A DNA stretch of 64,000 bases, from assembly GCA_963743885.1 (NCBI GenBank), contig CAVURJ010000001.1, positions 566,321-630,320 of the forward strand, given 5' to 3'. The notes beneath the pieces were generated by a model. The model ran no database searches. It was not told the DNA's origin and worked only from the letters and a program-made list of their open reading frames with translations. Source of the DNA: Candidatus Moraniibacteriota bacterium. Lineage in GTDB: Bacteria; Patescibacteriota; Minisyncoccia; Moranbacterales; UBA1568. This document shows, in pieces, positions 8,607 to 52,609 of this stretch; position 1 is the stretch's first letter; the number at the start of each line of letters is the position of its first letter. The position numbers and the translations under genes were made by a program.

Positions 8607-11244
8607 ATGAACATCGGAAAATTCACTACCAAGAGTCAGGAAGCCATCCGCAATGCGCAGGAGATCGCGCTTTCGCGGAACAACCCGCAGATGGATACAG
8701 CACACCTGCTCTATGCACTGTTGCTCCAGCCTGATTCCATCGTGCCGGCCGTTTTCGGCGAGCTTGAGGCGGATATTGAGAAGTTGAAGGGCGGCATCCT
8801 CGCTGAGATAGACAAGTTTCCGCAGGCGGAAGCGGGTGTACTTGGGAGTCTGTATTTGTCACCGGGATTTGCACGGACATTGTCTGAAGCTGAAGACCAG
8901 ATGGGAAAGATCGGGGATGATTTCGTCTCGACCGAGCATCTTTTGCTCTCACTGCTTTCCGTCGGCGGTCCCATGAAGACGCTCCTCGAGAAGAACGGTG
9001 TGAAGTATGATGATGTGCTCCGCATACTCTCTGAGCTCCGTGGCGGACAGAAGGTGGAAAGCCAGGACCCTGAGCAGACGTACCAGGCGCTCGAGAAGTA
9101 CGCTATCAATCTGACCGAGCTCGCACGCGCTGAGAAGCTCGATCCAGTCATTGGTCGTGATGACGAGATCCGCCGTGTGATGCAGATCCTTTCGCGTCGC
9201 ACCAAGAACAATCCCGTCTTGATTGGCGAGGCTGGCACTGGCAAGACCGCCATCGCGGAAGGTCTGGCGCAGCGCATCGTCTCGGGTGACGTGCCGGAGA
9301 ACTTGAAGGGCAAGGAAGTCATATCGCTCGATCTCGGAGCGCTCCTTGCGGGTGCGAAATTTCGCGGCGAGTTCGAGGAGCGGCTCAAGGCTATCCTCAA
9401 AGAGATTGAGCGTTCGGCTGACCGTTTCATCCTTTTCATCGATGAGCTGCATACGCTTGTGGGTGCCGGCGCGACCGAGGGTGCACTCGATGCGTCGAAC
9501 ATGCTAAAGCCCGCGCTCTCGCGTGGCAGACTCCGCACGATCGGCGCAACGACGATCAAGGAGTACCAGCGTTATATCGAGAAGGACGCAGCGCTTGAGC
9601 GGCGTTTCCAGCCGGTCATCGTGAGTGAGCCGTCGGAAGAGGATGCAATCGCCATCCTGCGCGGCATCAAGGAGAAATACGCGCTCCATCACGGCGTGAA
9701 GATCACCGATGATGCGCTCATCGCAGCTGTGAAGCTTTCCAAGCGTTATATCGCTGACCGTTTCTTGCCGGACAAGGCGATCGACCTCATCGATGAGGCG
9801 GCGTCGCTCCGCCGTATGGAGATTGATTCGATGCCGACTGAACTTGATCAGGATGAGCGGAGCATCCGGCGCCTGGAGATCGAGAAGCCGCGCGCTTGAG
9901 AAGGAGGGCGGCGCCGAGAAGAAGGTACGGGAAATCAACCGGGAGCTCGCGGAGCTCCGGGAGCGTTCGCAGAAGCTGTCGCTCCGTTGGAAGACCGAAC
10001 GCGAACTCATCATGGCGATGCGTGGGCACAAGGCTGATATTGATAAACTAAGGAGCGAGGCTGAGATGGCCGAGCGCCAAGGTGAGCTCGACCGTGTGGC
10101 GGAGATCCGCTATGGTCGCATCCCAGAGATCGAGAAGAAGCTCCTTGCTGAAGAGAAACGCCTTGTGAAGCTTCAGAAGGACGGTTCGATTCTGCACGAG
10201 GAGATCAGCGAGGAGGATATCGCCGCGGTCGTCTCGCGTGCGACTGGTATCCCAATCGCCAAGATGCTCGAGAAGGAAGCGGAGAAGCTCGTCCATATGG
10301 AAGCGGCGCTCCAGACGAGGGTCATTGGTCAGGATGATGCCGTGAAAGCGGTCGCGAGTGCGATCCGACGCTCGAGAGCAGGGCTCGCCGAGGAGACGAA
10401 GCCGATCGGATCATTCATTTTCCTTGGATTGACCGGCGTCGGCAAGACCGAGCTCGCCAAGGCTTTGGCGCAGTTCCTCTTTGATGATGAGAAAGCGCTG
10501 GTGCGCGTGGATATGAGCGAATACATGGAGTCGCACTCGGTCGCCAAGATGATTGGGTCGCCCCCGGGCTATGTGGGGTATGAGGAGGGTGGTCAGCTGA
10601 CGGAGACTATCCGTCGGAGGCCGTACAGCGTCGTGCTCTTCGATGAGATCGAGAAGGCGCATCCGGATGTTTTCAACGCGCTGCTCCAAATCCTCGATGA
10701 TGGACGCCTGACCGATAGCAAAGGGCGTGTCGTCAATTTCAAGAATACCGTCATTATCATGACGTCGAATGTCGGGTCCGATATCCTGGTCCGGGCCAAG
10801 GGCCTCGGTTTCAAGGGTGACCGGAGCGGTGATGATGGGACGTTGTCCGAGGATGAGATCCGCGAGCGTATCCTCTCCAGCCTGCGCGAGCGCTTCAAGC
10901 CGGAATTCCTGAATCGTATCGATGAGACGATTATCTTCCATCCGCTCTCTGAAAAGGTCTTCGGCGGCATCGTTGATTTGCAGCTCGCGCGTGTTGTCGA
11001 GCGCCTTGCGAAGCAGGGGGTGCGGATCCGGTTTGCGGCACAAGTAAAGGCGTATCTCGCGAAGAAGGGGTATGATCCCGCCTATGGCGCCCGCCCGCTC
11101 AAGCGGCTGATCCAGAACGAGATCCTCGATCCGCTGTCGCTTGAAATTCTCGAGAAAAAGGTGCAGGGGGGCGATGTAGTGGAAACCTCCATAGGGAAGG
11201 ACAGGGTGGTTTTTAAAAAGATGGAAAAGAAAAGGAAAAAATAG
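8607..11244 (+). CDS. clpB: Chaperone ClpB (Hsp100 disaggregase), interrupted by an apparent +1 frameshift near 9887-9895
   Basis: An N-domain, NBD1 ([27 protein letters not shown]), an M-domain coiled coil, NBD2 ([31 protein letters not shown]) and the [10 protein letters not shown] motif are all present. The reading frame switches in the gccgcgcgc run: IEK-PRA* in one frame, then ALEKEGG... in the next. Confidence 0.85.
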
Positions 11245-11245
11245 A

Positions 11246-11365
11246 ATCATGAATCAGGAATCATGAATCAAGAAACAGCATCTAGAGAGGCTGTTTTCGG
11301 TATGGTATAGTATGAGAAAGGGATTTCTCGTCATAATTCTCGATTCTTAATTCCTGATTCTTCTT
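11246..11365. repeat. Low-complexity imperfect inverted repeat spacer built from gaatca / tgattc words
   Basis: gaatcatgaatcaggaatcatgaatcaag ... attctcgattcttaattcctgattcttcttc. It also contains a short hairpin AACAGC...GCTGTT followed by TTTT. Confidence 0.5.
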
Positions 11366-11369
11366 CAGA

Positions 11370-12128
11370 ATGATCTTCCATTTCGCCGTACTCTTCTGGA
11401 CCGCTGTCTTTTCGTCCTGGCTGGGATATCTGGCTTTTTCGCCAGCTGAGCCGTCATGGGGATGGTATGCACTCTCTATCCTTCCGCTCGTCGCCATATC
11501 GCTCGTCGCCGGGCATCGGGTGGCTGGCGCATTCTCTGGTGCATCGCTTTCTGTGCTGTTGTCTGTCACGGCACCGGTTTTGCTTTCATTTATCGACCGG
11601 CCGGCTGAACGGCAGGCGTTCGTTGCGCTGACCGCTCTCATGTACTACGTGTCGCTCATCGGAGCATATCGACTGCGGCATGCGCCGAATGACCGTACTG
11701 CGCAGTCGATGCTCAATGCGTCAGCGATGGCGGCGATGTTTTTTTTCTTCGCTGGATTGTACGGCTTTTATCTCAACTTCTCTTTCCCGCTCTGGGGGCT
11801 GATGGTACTGTATTTCCTTGGAGCCGCGTTTGTTAGTCGGGAGACGTTCGTCGATGTCGACCGGGGCGATGAGAGCCCGCGCGTGACGGTCTACAGCGTG
11901 CTCATTGGTCTCGTGATGGGCGAGATGGCCTGGGTTTCAAGTCTTTGGCCGTTCGGTTATCTGACGGTCGGCGCTATCAACCTTGTGTTGTTTTTCATCG
12001 CGTGGGATGTGGCTTCCGATGCGTTCCGCAAGGAACTTTCGCTCAAGAAGGCCGTGGCGCGTATCCTCTTCTTCATCGCGGTTATTGCGGCGCTCTTCCT
12101 TTCTTCGCCTTGGAGAATCCTGGTCTGA
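11370..12128 (+). CDS. Polytopic membrane protein, function unknown
   Basis: 252 aa with six or more hydrophobic helices. No motif recognised. Confidence 0.5.
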   Translation: MIFHFAVLFWTAVFSSWLGYLAFSPAEPSWGWYALSILPLVAISLVAGHRVAGAFSGASLSVLLSVTAPVLLSFIDRPAERQAFVALTALMYYVSLIGAYRLRHAPNDRTAQSMLNASAMAAMFFFFAGLYGFYLNFSFPLWGLMVLYFLGAAFVSRETFVDVDRGDESPRVTVYSVLIGLVMGEMAWVSSLWPFGYLTVGAINLVLFFIAWDVASDAFRKELSLKKAVARILFFIAVIAALFLSSPWRILV

Positions 12129-36313: not shown

Positions 36314-37030
36314 TTAGAGTAGCCATCGGCGAGCGAGACGCGCAATGTTGTCCATAATCTTTTTCGGAATCCATCGTGTGTATCGGTAGAACGGATTCGG
36401 ATAAAACATCAGGACCCCATAGTTACAACTGTCAGGATCTTCCATATATCCAGGAATAATCCGGATGACGTTGAATCCGTCGTTTTGATACATGCGAACT
36501 TCTGGGTCGCGGCTCCGACCGTTTTTACCGAAGACATGATCTTCTATGGTTGTTGTCGCTGACCGTTTTCTAAATCCCGGGACTCGTGATCCAAGGAAGA
36601 CTCCTTTTTTTCCGGAGAGAATCACGAAGAACAGGATACTTTTTTCGACTAATTGATCGCCTACATCTTTTCCTTGGGCAGATGGTAGGACCGAAAGGTC
36701 GAGACCGAATGCGCTATCACCATTTTTGTTGTGGGTTAAAAATGTTCCATCGGCACTGGTGATTTCCCAAGTTTCTGCATTGAGCGCATCGTGTTCATTT
36801 AAGTAAATAGCACTCATAGTTCCTACAACTACACCATTTTTTGTAGCGCAATAAATAGTGTTGGGACAATGTAGAAATTGAGAGAGAACCTTTTCTCTGG
36901 TCCATAAATAACGCTCTGGAACATCTGGCCATACTTCTCGATTGATTTCGACGAATCGGTCAGCAAGGGCGATTTGGTCGTGGCCATGATGAAGTAAATC
37001 AGCGATGCACTTAATTGTGGTGCGGTACAT
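36314..37030 (-). CDS. Putative GNAT-family N-acetyltransferase, encoded in an AT-rich region
   Basis: VLPSAQGKDVGDQLVEKSI resembles the GNAT acetyl-CoA binding motif A (Q/R-x-x-G-x-G/A). Composition is markedly lower in GC than the flanking sequence. Confidence 0.35.
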   Translation of the reverse strand: MYRTTIKCIADLLHHGHDQIALADRFVEINREVWPDVPERYLWTREKVLSQFLHCPNTIYCATKNGVVVGTMSAIYLNEHDALNAETWEITSADGTFLTHNKNGDSAFGLDLSVLPSAQGKDVGDQLVEKSILFFVILSGKKGVFLGSRVPGFRKRSATTTIEDHVFGKNGRSRDPEVRMYQNDGFNVIRIIPGYMEDPDSCNYGVLMFYPNPFYRYTRWIPKKIMDNIARLARRWLL

Positions 37031-42375: not shown

Positions 42376-42540
42376 AATGGTGAATTGAGAATCAAGAATT
42401 ATGAATGGGATGGGATCCGGAGAGTGTATTTCCAGGAATGGATGCTTTGCAGTTTTTGTCAGCAAATCGTACAAGAAAGGGAAACGGCTGATATGCAAAT
42501 CTTGATTCTTAATTCTTGATTCTGGATTCTTTTCCTATTA
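42376..42540. repeat. Low-complexity imperfect inverted repeat spacer (gaatcaagaattatgaatgg / aatcttgattcttaattcttgattc)
   Basis: Uses the same word family as the spacer at 11246. Confidence 0.45.
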
Positions 42541-43942: not shown

Positions 43943-44099
43943 TATGCCCGGTAGTAGAATTTCGAAATGAGATTCTTCCAGGGAATGAAAAAACCGATGT
44001 ACGTATTTTTCCACGGTCGTAGGAAAATATGTACATTCTGAATCAAAAGAGATATAGACGTGATTAAGTTAATTGTTCGAAATTTCACTACCGGGTATG
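43941..44099 (+). promoter_or_regulatory. Long-range inverted repeat, copy B. The 5' arm is atatgcccggtagtagaatttcgaa (43941-43965) and the 3' arm is ttcgaaatttcactaccgggtATG (44076-44099), containing the mrdA start codon
   Basis: The arms are reverse complements of each other at 20 of 22 positions. An internal GTACGTATTTTTCC...GGAAAATATGTAC inverted repeat lies between them. Confidence 0.6.
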
Positions 44100-46846: not shown

Positions 46847-46926
46847 GCTTGACAGAACGGAAAATATTGATTAATCTTCCGATAAGATTTTCTGTTAATC
46901 TTTTTAAAACATTTTATGTATACTCT

Positions 46927-47352
46927 ATGAGCAAAAAACTTCTTATGGCTTTAGGACTGATAACTCTCCTTGGGGGATGGCTTTTTTTTGTTCCTGCTAA
47001 GCCACAATTTCCGGTCGATTACCTACCACTCTATAGTGTTGATGATTATATTAATGGCAATGCTATTGCGCCCACGACCAAAAGGGAAAATTTCCTCAAG
47101 ACGTATATCTATGGATGGAAAGACTGGACCAAGGAGGGCCACGACCCGCTTATCACTGAAGACGATTGGATTATCGCTATGATTGATAGCGGTCAACAGA
47201 AAAAAGCCTGGGGAATTGAGTATTCTAAACAAGAGTTGTTGACTACAGCACAAAAGGAAATAGAGTGGAGACAAAAAGTAAACAAAGATGGTCATAGAGA
47301 TAAAGAAATCGCTCGAATACAAAGTTTCATCGATATCCTCTCAAAGCACTAG
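46927..47352 (+). CDS. Hypothetical secreted or membrane-anchored protein in an AT-rich patch
   Basis: MSKKLLMALGLITLLGGWLFFVPA signal/anchor sequence. No domain recognised. The ORF track starts the frame at 46849. Confidence 0.4.
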   Translation: MSKKLLMALGLITLLGGWLFFVPAKPQFPVDYLPLYSVDDYINGNAIAPTTKRENFLKTYIYGWKDWTKEGHDPLITEDDWIIAMIDSGQQKKAWGIEYSKQELLTTAQKEIEWRQKVNKDGHRDKEIARIQSFIDILSKH

Positions 47353-47461
47353 CATACGGTCATTGCCTGCCTGCGGGCTGATGGCGGGACTCCCGTAGGT
47401 AATCCCAACACGGAAGTCTGTACCACTTACGGGCGATATTCGAAGAAGTAGTTTCCTTCCT

Positions 47462-47493
47462 CATCCGAGAAGTCTCTCGGATGGGGATTTTTT
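47462..47493 (+). terminator. Rho-independent terminator
   Basis: CATCCGAGA agtc TCTCGGATG, then GGGATTTTTT. Confidence 0.75.
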
Positions 47494-47546
47494 CTTGCCT
47501 TTTCGCTTGGAAAAGGCTAAAATATGGCTACTATCTTGTGAAAACA

Positions 47547-47680
47547 CTATGCCTGGTAGTAGAACTTCGACCGAGCATTCAGAATTATTACAAAAAGGCA
47601 GGTATTTCCGATATAACAAGAACTAATCAATCTTCCTCGATTTCATAAGAAATTGTCGAAGTTTCACTGACTTAGGTATG
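47547..47680 (+). promoter_or_regulatory. Long-range inverted repeat, copy C. The 5' arm is ctatgcctggtagtagaacttcga (47547-47570) and the 3' arm is tcgaagtttcactgacttaggtATG (47656-47680), containing the lysS start codon
   Basis: The match between arms is less perfect than in copies A and B: an 8-bp perfect core AACTTCGA plus flanking matches. Confidence 0.5.
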
Positions 47681-49138
47681 CGCGAAGACATTCTGGCGAC
47701 CAAAGAAGAAAAACTCGGTACCCTGACTAAGGCTTTCGGGACAGCGTATCCGGAGCAGTGCGGCCGTACCCACGCCGTGGCTGATGTACTCGGTGGCTTT
47801 GACGCACTTCTACAATCAGGCGACCAGGTGACGATTGCGGGCCGTGTGAAGTCTCTTCGCATGATGGGCAAGATCGGTTTCGCACACATCGAGGATGGGA
47901 GCGGCAAGATGCAGATTTTTCTTTCCGAGCAGGCGACCGGTCTGGATACGCTCAAGCTCTTTGCAGATACTATCGAGATTGGCGATTTCGTCGAGGCGAC
48001 CGGTAAGGCGTTCCTGACCAAGAAGGAAGAGAAGACGATCGAGGTGGCTGGCTGGAAGATCCTCGGTAAGTCCATGCGTCCGATCCCGACCGAGCACTTC
48101 GGACTCCAGGATGAGGAGGAGAAGCTTCGCCGCCGCTATCTTGATTTGCTTTCCAATCCTGAGACGCGCGATATCTTTGTGAAGAAGAATGCTTTCTGGC
48201 AGACGGTACGTACGTTGCTCTCGAGCGAGAAGTTTCTTGAGGTCCAGACGCCAGTCCTCGAGCATATCCCGGGCGGCGCCGAAGCCGAGCCGTTCGTCAC
48301 GCATCACAATGCGCTCGATGCTGATTTTTATCTTCGCATCTCACTCGAGCTTTCGCTCAAGCGTCTCCTGGTCGGCGGATACGAGCGGGTCTTCGAGATC
48401 GGTCGCGTCTTCCGCAACGAGGGCATCGACCGCGAGCATCTCCAGGAGTTCGACCACATGGAGTTCTATGCGGCCTATATGGACATGGAGCAGGGTATGG
48501 CGCTTGTGGAGAAGATGTATCGGGATATCGTGCGCGCGGTCGCTGGCGAGGCTTTGACGACTTCGTACGAGGGCGAGACGATCGATTGGTCGAAGCCATT
48601 CCCGCGCGTCGACTATTTCACCGAATTTAAGAAAGAGACTGATATCGATCTTTCGGATGACGTCAGCGTCGAGGAACTCCAGAAGAAAGCCGATGAGCTC
48701 GGTATCAAGTACGAGAAGAATTACGGTCTCGGTCGCATGATCGATACGCTTTACAAGAAGACGGTCCGTCAGCGCCTGATGCAGCCGTGCCTCCTCGTGG
48801 GACATCCGCTCGCGGTATCGCCCTTGGCGAAGATCGACCCGAAGGATCCGAAGAAGGTGCTTCGCTTCCAGCCGGTCGCGGTCCGAAGCGAGCTCGGCAA
48901 CGGGTTTGCAGAGCTCAATGATCCGGCCGACCAGCGTCGCCGTTTCGAAGAGCAGATGAAGCTCCGCGCCGCGGGCGATGCCGAAGGTATGATGCTCGAT
49001 GAGGATTTCCTCGAAGCGCTCGAATACGGCATGCCGCCGGCGTGCGGCTTCGGCATGAGCGAACGGCTCTTCGCTATTCTCATGGATCGATCCGTTCGCG
49101 AGACGGTCATCTTCCCGCCGATGAAGGGGAGGGAGTAG
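47678..49138 (+). CDS. lysS: Lysyl-tRNA synthetase, class II
   Basis: An OB-fold anticodon-binding N-domain, and class II motifs (FRNEGIDREHLQEFDHMEFY; GFGMSERL). Confidence 0.9.
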   Translation: MREDILATKEEKLGTLTKAFGTAYPEQCGRTHAVADVLGGFDALLQSGDQVTIAGRVKSLRMMGKIGFAHIEDGSGKMQIFLSEQATGLDTLKLFADTIEIGDFVEATGKAFLTKKEEKTIEVAGWKILGKSMRPIPTEHFGLQDEEEKLRRRYLDLLSNPETRDIFVKKNAFWQTVRTLLSSEKFLEVQTPVLEHIPGGAEAEPFVTHHNALDADFYLRISLELSLKRLLVGGYERVFEIGRVFRNEGIDREHLQEFDHMEFYAAYMDMEQGMALVEKMYRDIVRAVAGEALTTSYEGETIDWSKPFPRVDYFTEFKKETDIDLSDDVSVEELQKKADELGIKYEKNYGLGRMIDTLYKKTVRQRLMQPCLLVGHPLAVSPLAKIDPKDPKKVLRFQPVAVRSELGNGFAELNDPADQRRRFEEQMKLRAAGDAEGMMLDEDFLEALEYGMPPACGFGMSERLFAILMDRSVRETVIFPPMKGRE

Positions 49139-49349: not shown

Positions 49350-49423
49350 GGTCGCATAGTTCAGTTGGTTAGAACGTTCGATTCACATTCGAAAGGTCCC
49401 TGGTTCGAGTCCAGGTGCGACCA
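49350..49423 (+). tRNA. tRNA-Val (anticodon CAC)
   Basis: Clean cloverleaf: acceptor GGTCGCA/TGCGACC, D-arm AGTTCAGTTGGTTAGAACG, anticodon stem TTCGA/TCGAA with loop TTCACAT, T-arm CCTGG-TTCGAGT-CCAGG, discriminator A. No CCA is encoded. Confidence 0.85.
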
Positions 49424-49440
49424 CAGGAGGAGTTTAAGTG

Positions 49441-49560
49441 GTTCAGTTTCTGCTCGGAGTTGAGCAGTTGGTTACCCGCCCGTACCGAACGGTACGTTCG
49501 GGCGGGGAGCACAGCATTCACATTGCTGGGGTCACTGGTTCGAATCCAGTATTGTCCACA
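49441..49560 (+). other. tRNA-derived partial duplicate: D-loop, the 32-nt insert in reverse orientation, and a tRNA-Val(CAC) 3' portion (CAGCATTCACATTGCTG-GGGTC-ACTGGTTCGAATCCAGT-ATTGTCC)
   Basis: It shares a 40-nt exact block with 49613-49653. No matching 5' acceptor strand is present. Confidence 0.45.
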
Positions 49561-50977: not shown

Positions 50978-51107
50978 TAAGGAATGAGGGAGAGCGGCTC
51001 TGTTGGGGGCTTTTCTTTTTGCTTTTTTCAGCCAAAACCGCTACACTAGGAGCTGTAATCACCGTTTTTCTTGATTCTTGTCTCTTGATTCTTTACTCTT
51101 CTTCAAT

Positions 51108-52536: not shown

Positions 52537-52609
52537 GGGTGCGTAGCTCAGTCGGTAGAGCAGTGGCCTTTTAAGCCAACGGTCGAGGGTTCGATTCCCC
52601 CCGCACCCA
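52537..52609 (+). tRNA. tRNA-Lys (anticodon TTT)
   Basis: Acceptor GGGTGCG/CGCACCC, D-arm GCTC-AGTCGGTA-GAGC, anticodon stem GTGGC/GCCAA with loop CTTTTAA, T-arm GAGGG-TTCGATT-CCCCC, discriminator A. Confidence 0.85.

Follow-up and report, generated by a model that had tools for sequence, protein, structure and literature searches.

An inverted repeat at the lysS start codon is probably a miniature of a selfish, GIY-YIG nuclease-encoding family of the Candidate Phyla Radiation

In a 64,000-nt stretch of a Candidatus Moraniibacteriota genome (contig CAVURJ010000001.1; the whole stretch is called the window below), the start codon of lysS, the gene for lysyl-tRNA synthetase (LysRS), lies in the 3' arm of a long-range inverted repeat, copy C, which has two relatives in the window, copies A and B. 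We conclude that copy C is probably a miniature, resembling a miniature inverted-repeat transposable element (MITE), of a selfish family that is sited at start codons, is widespread in the Candidate Phyla Radiation (CPR, or Patescibacteria) and has a full-length form encoding a GIY-YIG nuclease. The members of the family have one architecture and are linked by their ends to the nuclease open reading frame (ORF); they are present or absent at orthologous sites, a sister of copy C sits relocated at another gene, the two arms covary, and one lineage maintains an ORF in its miniatures.

Results

Copy C is an insertion absent from related lysS leaders

The nearest named matches of the LysRS of the window are from Moranbacteria. 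We compared the lysS loci of five related Moranbacteria, in which LysRS is 92% (L115), 90% (L116), 90% (L117), 86% (L118) and 76% (L066) identical to that of the window. A sequence-only reading of the window had judged copy C to be old and conserved and not a recently inserted MITE; in the alignment of the related leaders, the arms are absent from all five loci, each of which has a clean junction. The empty L115 junction reads ...ggctaaaatggggctactatcttgtgaaactacT/ATGCGCGAAGAT (...gaaactacT/ATGCGC), and the filled junction of the window reads ...ggctaaaatatggctactatcttgtgaaaacacTATG, then the insert CCTGGTAG...CTTAGG, then TATGCGCGAAGAC (...aaacacTATG[131 nt]TATGCGC). Furthermore, a sister of copy C, ~85% identical over its whole length and with an intact 3' arm, is located at the serS start codon of L118 (4255-4394) between unrelated flanks, and the candidate serS of the window (start 51108) has no element. 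Because the orthologous leaders are empty and a copy is present at the L118 serS, copy C is a lineage-specific insertion of a mobile subfamily and not an old lysS leader; judged from the aligned loci, this shows insertion after the lineage of the window split from relatives with 92% LysRS identity. Other sites are polymorphic as well. The junction in front of the penicillin-binding protein 2 (PBP2) gene, which holds copy B in the window, has no element in L121, L122 and L066, and the mreC/mreD junction is filled in the syntenic L066 and consists of an ATGA overlap without an element in the window.

The promoter-like site of lysS, the short leader upstream of the junction and the terminator of the preceding transcription unit are common to the window and its three closest relatives, and the lysS transcript is predicted to start at ~47530, ~19 nt before the element ATG. 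The alternative -35/-10 pair that had been suggested from the sequence, TTGTGA...TAGAAC, does not hold up as a unit: TTGTGA belongs to the ancestral leader (it is also in the empty L115), and TAGAAC is inside the insert. The ATG at 47549-47551, at the upstream end of copy C, occupies the position of the lysS ATG in the element-free relatives and opens the upstream ORF (uORF) of the element. All copies are flanked at both ends by TATG, and 6 of 8 empty sites read T-ATG. A 4-bp TATG target-site duplication flanking CCNGGTAG...CTACCNGG is the simplest anatomy, and it is likely, though not proven, from these junctions.

Copy C has paired ends and two relatives in the window

Copy C (47548-47680) has a total length of 133 nt, with arms of ~24 nt each separated by 83 nt (between 47571 and 47655). 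Its arms had been described as an 8-bp perfect core plus flanking matches; the flanking matches are present, and the perfect core is 9 bp (AACTTCGAC/GTCGAAGTT). A repeat search of copy C returned 14 nt at 86% complementarity. The inverted repeat passed the shuffle test, since the duplex of the two 28-nt ends has an energy of -25.5 kcal/mol, compared with -6.65 +/- 2.72 kcal/mol in shuffles, and 0 of 2000 dinucleotide shuffles of copy C reach it. The closing helix is present in both the minimum free energy and the centroid folds with the AUG inside the helix. As had also been proposed, the lysS ATG is inside the 3' arm: the ATG at 47678-47680 opens the 486-aa LysRS ORF.

Local BLAST and a mismatch-tolerant motif search of the window recovered copies A and B, so that the 23-nt 5'-arm motif occurs three times at 3 mismatches or fewer (A, B and C) against 0 expected, in agreement with the earlier count of three related copies. 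Each of the three ends in the ATG of a downstream ORF: the ATG of copy A (4355) opens a putative 36-aa hydrophobic ORF and that of copy B (44097) opens PBP2 (mrdA), the 5' TATG of copy B abutting the TAA stop of an upstream MreD-like ORF. Copies A and B have near-perfect arms (-32.8 and -33.0 kcal/mol). Copy C was rightly regarded as the most diverged of the three, having the most degenerate 3' arm (CTGACTTAGG versus CTACCNGG in the family). Compared with the L118 sister, its 5' arm has changed from CCCGG to CCTGG and its 3' arm from GGG to AGG, a compensated C-G to U-A change, and the remaining 3' clamp has decayed. The interior of copy C cannot be aligned with the other Moran-type copies past the first ~17 nt.

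A chance inverted repeat would be consistent with the weak z-score of whole-leader folding and with the 8-mer core, which on its own is at chance level in the 64-kb window (4 matches versus 3.1 expected). The shuffle test, the three motif matches against none expected and the at least 114 loci with cognate 3' arms described below already refute chance, whose probability we regard as negligible. The 8-mer core TCGAAGTT was also tried as a marker of other copies and rejected, its two other matches being inside coding sequence and at the chance rate.

The family is widespread in CPR genomes and sited at unrelated genes

The 23-nt 5'-arm motif TATGCCNGGTAGNANAANTTCNA was sought by exact matching in one genome for each GTDB species, which yielded at least 114 loci, the estimated chance expectation being ~17. 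Among the listed matches, nearly all are in Patescibacteria metagenome-assembled genomes (MAGs), namely Kaiser-, Moran-, Gottesman-, Portnoy- and Yanofskybacteria and some labelled 'Saccharibacteria'. The subfamilies of the named CPR MAGs also turn up in several third-party annotation (TPA) MAGs that are labelled Gammaproteobacteria or Bdellovibrionales, and we suspect from this that these few MAGs are mislabelled. There are several copies per genome, at least seven in MAG CAZTRS01 and at least four in several others. The architecture, present in at least 112 places, starts with a 5' arm TATGCCNGGTAG..AAYTTCRA; next come an interior, with which most copies reach ~120-155 nt in total, a complementary 3' arm whose last bases are GGTATG, and the host ORF, the ends forming ~20-24-bp inverted repeats CCNGGTAG...AAYTTCRA / TYGAARTT...CTACCNGG. 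A cognate complementary 3' arm ending GGTATG accompanies 112 of 120 5' arms, mostly at a spacing of 120-155 nt (in a few cases ~79 nt, ~210 nt or 305-353 nt), and in 104 of the 112 elements the 3'-arm ATG opens an ORF of 60 aa or more.

The proteins downstream of the elements are nearly all distinct and matched 162 Pfam families. The more than 100 different host genes include those for aminoacyl-tRNA synthetases, ribosomal proteins, gyrA, topA, dnaB, ribonucleotide reductase and sigma-70, and they are not a regulon. Without exception the element reads in the sense direction relative to its host gene, and the helix incorporates both ATGs. In IMG/VR viral contigs the 5'-arm motif has two exact matches (L119 514-536 and L120 6003-6025), one of them in a giant-virus MAG. 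At gathering thresholds Rfam 15 detected only tRNAs in the window, and a permissive Rfam search (E <= 1 to 5) gave no match on the elements. On a Portnoybacteria contig (L073 4136-4291, minus strand), a match resembling 6S RNA stayed under the Rfam gathering score (39.9 versus 46.4 bits, E = 1e-4). No description of the element was found in the searchable literature, a coverage outside which most subscription journals lie.

The full-length form encodes a GIY-YIG nuclease

The seven longest copies contain a single ORF that runs from the 5'-arm ATG to within or just past the 3' arm. These full-length elements measure 306-353 nt and encode 93-106 aa (for example MPGRTISNRFYYVYVLQS...GGRRFLAKRLKDYYGRNNSKLY followed by the stop), and the ORF matches the GIY-YIG family PF01541 with E = 1e-14 to 1e-18. 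The nearest solved structures are the UPF0213 proteins 1ZG2 (E = 1e-5) and 1YWL (E = 1e-4), and the score against the NCBIfam model grpIintron_endo, 18-23 bits, is far below the cut-off of 56. A database search returned 330 clusters of such proteins, whose sources, where named, are Patescibacteria/CPR MAGs or unclassified 'bacterium' MAGs. In the best 120 homologues, the protein starts with MPG in 70 (MPGR or MPGS in 66) and ends with NSKLY in 32. Since the homologues start and end in this way, the arms are the coding termini of the nuclease gene, the 5' arm encoding the MPGxTxSN start and the 3' arm the NSKLY end with its stop. The nuclease ATG occupies the position of the original host ATG, and in the Kaiser-type lineage the nuclease stop, TAA, is within the 3' arm 6 nt before the host ATG.

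Several loci connect the miniatures with the full-length form. First, a full-length element (L017) and a miniature (L057) are on one contig and have identical arms and sub-terminal bases. Second, L012 is an internal-deletion derivative of the nuclease ORF. Third, L059 (6529-6974) holds a full-length GIY-YIG element that has decayed, its arms being degenerate and a stop codon lying inside it; an intact miniature comes directly after it and has one TATG in common with it, meaning that the same start codon was hit twice. In the 64-kb window, no GIY-YIG gene was found. A candidate relic of the nuclease ORF in the inside of copy C was dismissed as noise, since the tblastn match (E = 0.15) crosses a stop and enters lysS.

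The arms covary, and two lineages carry transcript-level signals

We analysed covariation in 60 distinct ungapped arm pairs. Standard pairs fill 96.5% of the cells, and double-sided changes, which affect seven pairs, amount to 113 cells compared with 35 +/- 5 in shuffles, a number that none of the 500 shuffles reached. The covariation score of the arms is 0.227, compared with ~0.03 for slid partners. At the N of CCNGG all four bases occur, and they are complementary in 57 of the 60 pairs. This arm covariation is the reason for which we propose intramolecular base pairing of the arms. A conserved leader peptide was rejected as the explanation of the arm: MPGS/R is kept only because it is the arm, changes at the S/R position are not synonymous, and the 3' arm varies in concert with the N of CCNGG. 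An excess of G.U pairs, first counted as 26 versus ~4 and taken as evidence of a sense RNA, was an artefact of bulged variants and has been withdrawn.

The lineages differ in their interiors. The Kaiser-type miniatures (e.g. L013 3583-3728 and L045 916-1061) are all 141-142 nt long and maintain an ORF of 43 codons, with interiors that are unrelated, amino acids included. In the 10 copies of in-frame length, frame 0 is open from the element ATG to the 3'-arm TAA in 8, compared with one copy for frame 1 and none for frame 2, the shuffle prediction being 1.9. In the Gottesman-type miniatures the interior is conserved and contains a covarying extension helix, UUGCC/GGCAA, together with a crossing, pseudoknot-like pairing, ACGCUUU/AAAGCGU, followed by an A-rich linker; the crossing pairing covaries as well (ACAC/GUGU, ACGG/CCGU, ACGA/UCGU). 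In the Moran-type lineage of the window, the closing helix alone is conserved and the interior is not, and the uORF ends early, after 8-25 codons, in the Moran-type copies including all three in the window. Across lineages, miniatures with unrelated interiors stay at ~130-150 nt. The Kaiser-type ORF maintenance and the Gottesman-type covarying pseudoknot point to selection that would act on the transcript.

These results bear on the question whether the arms are only transposon ends at the DNA level, recognised by a nuclease or folded as a single-stranded DNA hairpin as in IS200/IS605, REP (repetitive extragenic palindromic) and attC sequences, with pairing in the mRNA being incidental. The classical anatomy of inverted repeats and duplication, the insertion polymorphism, the G.U pairs that are not in excess over A.C mismatches and the unconstrained Moran-type interiors are all as this explanation predicts. 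The invariable sense orientation with both ATGs within the helix, as well as the Kaiser- and Gottesman-type signals of transcript selection, speak against it, and the N of CCNGG, which varies and yet remains complementary, favors base pairing over read-out by a protein, a pattern that a single-stranded DNA hairpin also fits. On balance we place DNA ends alone on the unlikely side, while taking the alternative seriously.

The conserved Gottesman-type interior (GAAAGGA, UGAAAUUUCG, the pseudoknot and the CUACCUGG box, which possibly pairs with the 5' arm) and the location of the start codon inside a ~24-bp helix would also suit a leader RNA with a cis-regulatory role (for example a riboswitch, a thermometer or a uORF switch) that masks and unmasks the start codons of lysS and other genes. 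The five empty orthologous leaders largely refute the lysS-specific form of this idea, and the general form is opposed by host genes that fall into 162 Pfam families with no common pathway, by interiors that are unconserved in the lineage of the window, by the absence of an Rfam match at E <= 1 and by the pairing of the internal box, which is 7.1 bp with its own arm and 6.9 bp with that of another copy. We therefore regard a regulatory leader as quite improbable. The pairing of the Gottesman-type 5' arm with the CUACCUGG box, rejected on the same cross-copy comparison, is compatible by eye at the N of CCNGG and is kept as a lead only.

Elements replace start codons behind short or absent leaders

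We counted start-context features upstream of 105 element ATGs. Shine-Dalgarno (SD)-like motifs are rare there (6 of 105, compared with 14 in the background window), -10-like boxes are enriched (21 versus 8 in the background window), and an upstream ORF ends 30 nt or less before the element ATG in 33 of the 105 cases. These counts suggest that the element replaces the host ATG behind very short leaders, at leaderless starts or at stop/start junctions. Similarly, most genes of the window are without an SD and many have a -10-like box near the ATG; the native lysS leader is short and SD-less, and no SD for the host ATG is provided by the 3' arm. A fixed-distance sigma-70 promoter with the motif as the 5' end of the transcript was rejected, because it would suit only some copies: the boxes are not at a fixed distance and a third of the copies abut an upstream stop.

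A further possibility, a variant of our preferred reading, is that the helix is an RNase III processing site whose cleavage leaves a short, SD-less host leader. The helix has 23-24 bp with a conserved central A.C mismatch and a G.U pair; RNase III sites with internal loops resemble such a helix with a central mismatch, and the Correia inverted repeats of Neisseria are RNase III substrates. The short, SD-less native lysS leader suits this variant too. We consider RNase III processing of the helix unlikely.

Surroundings of the element

The features of the window are collected in Table 1. Just upstream of copy A is a gene (1950-4082) for a 710-aa TrwB/TraD-like type IV coupling protein with a treble-clef zinc finger. 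The greA-lysS interval, in which copy C is located, is a variable spot within an otherwise conserved synteny. It contains a 167-aa ORF (46849-47352) that has no Pfam match and is absent from L117, L118 and L066, and L116 has at the same spot a different, 117-aa ORF with a weak DUF3135 match. Between the 167-aa ORF and the terminator, a G+C-rich stretch of ~100 nt with local hairpins (47353-47457) gave no Rfam match (best anti-hemB, E = 4.6), and the greA-lysS spacer of L066 holds a different long hairpin (6317-6450). Downstream of lysS, at 49350-49558 and 52537-52609, are three tRNA genes, of which two are confident and the third is weak (32.6 bits). In L121 and L122 serS directly follows lysS, a gene order that differs from that of the window.

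The window also contains a second leader-repeat family that is unrelated to the inverted-repeat element. Pyrimidine-rich TTCTTGATTCT-like repeats at 11243-11361, 42388-42530 and 51068-51092, and also at 36618 and 37985, have 13 matches at 1 mismatch or fewer compared with 1.9 expected (0 of 100 shuffles reach 13), and they cluster directly upstream of the genes starting at 11370, 42540 and 51108.

Table 1. Coordinates of the three element copies, the parts of copy C and the neighboring lysS signals in the window
Feature	Positions	Strand	Sequence or remark	Basis
Copy C, 5' arm	47547-47571	+	cTATGCCTGGTAGTAGAACTTCGAC	Read from sequence
Copy C, 3' arm including the lysS ATG	47655-47680	+	GTCGAAGTTTCACTGACTTAGGTATG	Read from sequence
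Upstream TATG of copy C	47548-47551	+	Apparent 4-bp target-site duplication	Filled versus empty alleles
5' arm of copy C as terminal inverted repeat	47552-47571	+	CCTGGTAGTAGAACTTCGAC	Sequence, motif search, arm alignment
uORF of copy C	47549-47626	+	MPGSRTSTEHSELLQKGRYFRYNKN, then stop; remnant of the N-terminus (MPGS..) of the GIY-YIG ORF of full-length elements	
Interior of copy C	47572-47654	+	~85% identity to the L118 serS copy	
3' arm of copy C as terminal inverted repeat	47655-47676	+	GTCGAAGTTTCACTGACTTAGG; degenerate versus family consensus ...CACTACCNGG	Sequence alignment
Downstream TATG of copy C	47677-47680	+	Second copy of the apparent target-site duplication; its ATG is the lysS start codon	ORF, domains, empty alleles
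lysS	47678-49138	+	Class II lysyl-tRNA synthetase, 486 aa, host gene	PF00152 and PF01336
Copy A	4224-4357	+	5' arm 4224-4247, 3' arm 4334-4357	
Copy B	43943-44099	+	5' arm 43943-43966, 3' arm 44076-44099	
Terminator-like hairpin and T-run of the preceding transcription unit	47458-47487	+	Outside the element	
Promoter-like site of lysS	47495-47523	+	TTGCCT-17-TAAAAT	Kept in the element-free leaders of the three closest relatives (90-92%)

Discussion

The element is short and non-coding with terminal inverted repeats, is multicopy and polymorphic for presence and absence, and has a protein-coding partner with the same ends; in these respects it resembles MITEs that have an autonomous partner. 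Its protein belongs to the type carried by homing endonuclease cassettes, and it does not have the features of a conserved leader. The Correia elements of Neisseria are the closest in appearance: they measure ~100-155 bp with ~25-bp inverted repeats and occur in many copies beside genes, where they form a stem in the mRNA. By description, the CPR element is like them in size, inverted repeats and gene-adjacent copies, and they have a short target duplication, as the CPR element apparently does. However, Correia elements duplicate TA, are not tied to start codons and have no ATG in their ends, and we know of no cognate protein-coding form, whereas the ends of the CPR element include the host start codon and its full-length form encodes the nuclease. 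The REP/REPIN sequences with their RAYT (REP-associated tyrosine transposase) genes offer a second parallel, having many short palindromic copies and few protein-coding copies with the same repeats. RAYTs are relatives of HUH/Y1 transposases, and REPs are mostly downstream of or between genes; in contrast, the protein of the CPR element is a GIY-YIG nuclease and the element is sited exactly at the start codon in the sense orientation.

With homing cassettes the CPR element shares a GIY-YIG nuclease, recognizable by its domain, as the sole gene of a selfish insertion. GIY-YIG homing endonucleases such as T4 seg/mob and I-TevI have ~250 aa with DNA-binding domains and one cognate site, and they depend on double-strand-break repair; their genes are without inverted repeats or miniature derivatives. 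In the mobE / gene 60 bypass cassette, the host gene continues to be expressed in spite of the insert through a device that acts on the RNA. The CPR protein, unlike these nucleases, consists of ~95 aa with the catalytic domain only, and the element has inverted repeats, miniatures and more than 100 host sites; neither one cognate allelic site nor a C-terminal DNA-binding domain is found. UPF0213/YhbQ-type proteins (1ZG2, 1YWL) are the closest solved relatives by sequence and similar in size. To our knowledge they have not been described as mobile or flanked by inverted repeats, and the CPR proteins differ from them by the arm-encoded MPGxTxSN and NSKLY ends. Finally, hairpins that mask start codons and split ribosome-binding sites, as in RNA thermometers and T4 genes 38 and 25, resemble the CPR element in a long-range leader pairing that includes or repositions the start codon. 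Such hairpins are gene-specific and vertically conserved, whereas the CPR element is an insertion that is absent from orthologues and lies before unrelated genes.

How might a host gene survive such an insertion? We propose that the nuclease would mobilize the elements, and that on insertion the upstream ATG would take over the transcription and translation start context of the host for the ORF of the element, the downstream ATG staying the start of the host gene. The arms would then pair in the mRNA, so that the helix would loop out the insert and return the host AUG to a place beside the original short, SD-less leader; alternatively, the helix may create an RNase III site. Where the ORF of the element is open, a terminating ribosome could reinitiate 6 nt downstream by translational coupling. 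In each case the host gene would still be translated, and insertions before essential genes would presumably be tolerated.

Several points weigh against this reading of copy C as a start-codon-sited selfish miniature and against parts of the mechanism. The folding energy of the whole copy C leader is ordinary (z = -1.63 and -0.79). The TATG duplication rests on few empty sites, its 5' TATG was forced by the scan, an ATG is needed for coding in any event, and in L066 and at the empty mreD site of the window a base other than T precedes the ATG. The exact scan required TATG and conserved arm bases, so that diversity and conservation are biased there. In the nuclease proteins only the catalytic domain was detected, without a recognizable DNA-binding domain. 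The arm covariation would be explained equally well by a single-stranded DNA hairpin, by inverted repeats evolving in concert or by an RNA helix, and sporadic G.U pairs and A.C/C.A mismatches number 17 versus 16 in the clean alignment, which gives no strand-specific signal. The uORF of the Moran-type copies stops early, and therefore coupling cannot explain host translation there. The association with start codons could reflect targeting or purifying selection.

Taken further, the family might constitute an unrecognized class of prokaryotic transposable element, a proposal that we make tentatively and regard as nearly an even call. Its only protein would be a ~95-aa, UPF0213-type GIY-YIG nuclease, the ORF of which would take up the whole element between and including the inverted repeats; lacking a start codon of its own, the element would insert at, and duplicate, the host start TATG, borrowing the promoter, leader and ATG of the host; its ends would pair in the mRNA, and in some lineages its stop would lie 6 nt before the host ATG, and essential genes would stay expressed in this way; and its miniatures, some with pseudoknotted interiors, would have spread across the CPR.

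If the reading is right, it matters for annotation, since gene callers may be misled by the short MPGS... uORFs and the shifted starts, and the repeats may pass for regulatory leaders. It would likewise provide the first candidate function, mobility, for the abundant small 'GIY-YIG nuclease family proteins' of the CPR, and it would bear on SD-less and leaderless translation starts in these bacteria. It would also describe a selfish element that lives inside essential transcription units, borrowing their start codon and hidden by RNA pairing or translational coupling. CPR genomes are tiny and gene-dense, and yet the element seems to have settled on many housekeeping start codons in several lineages.

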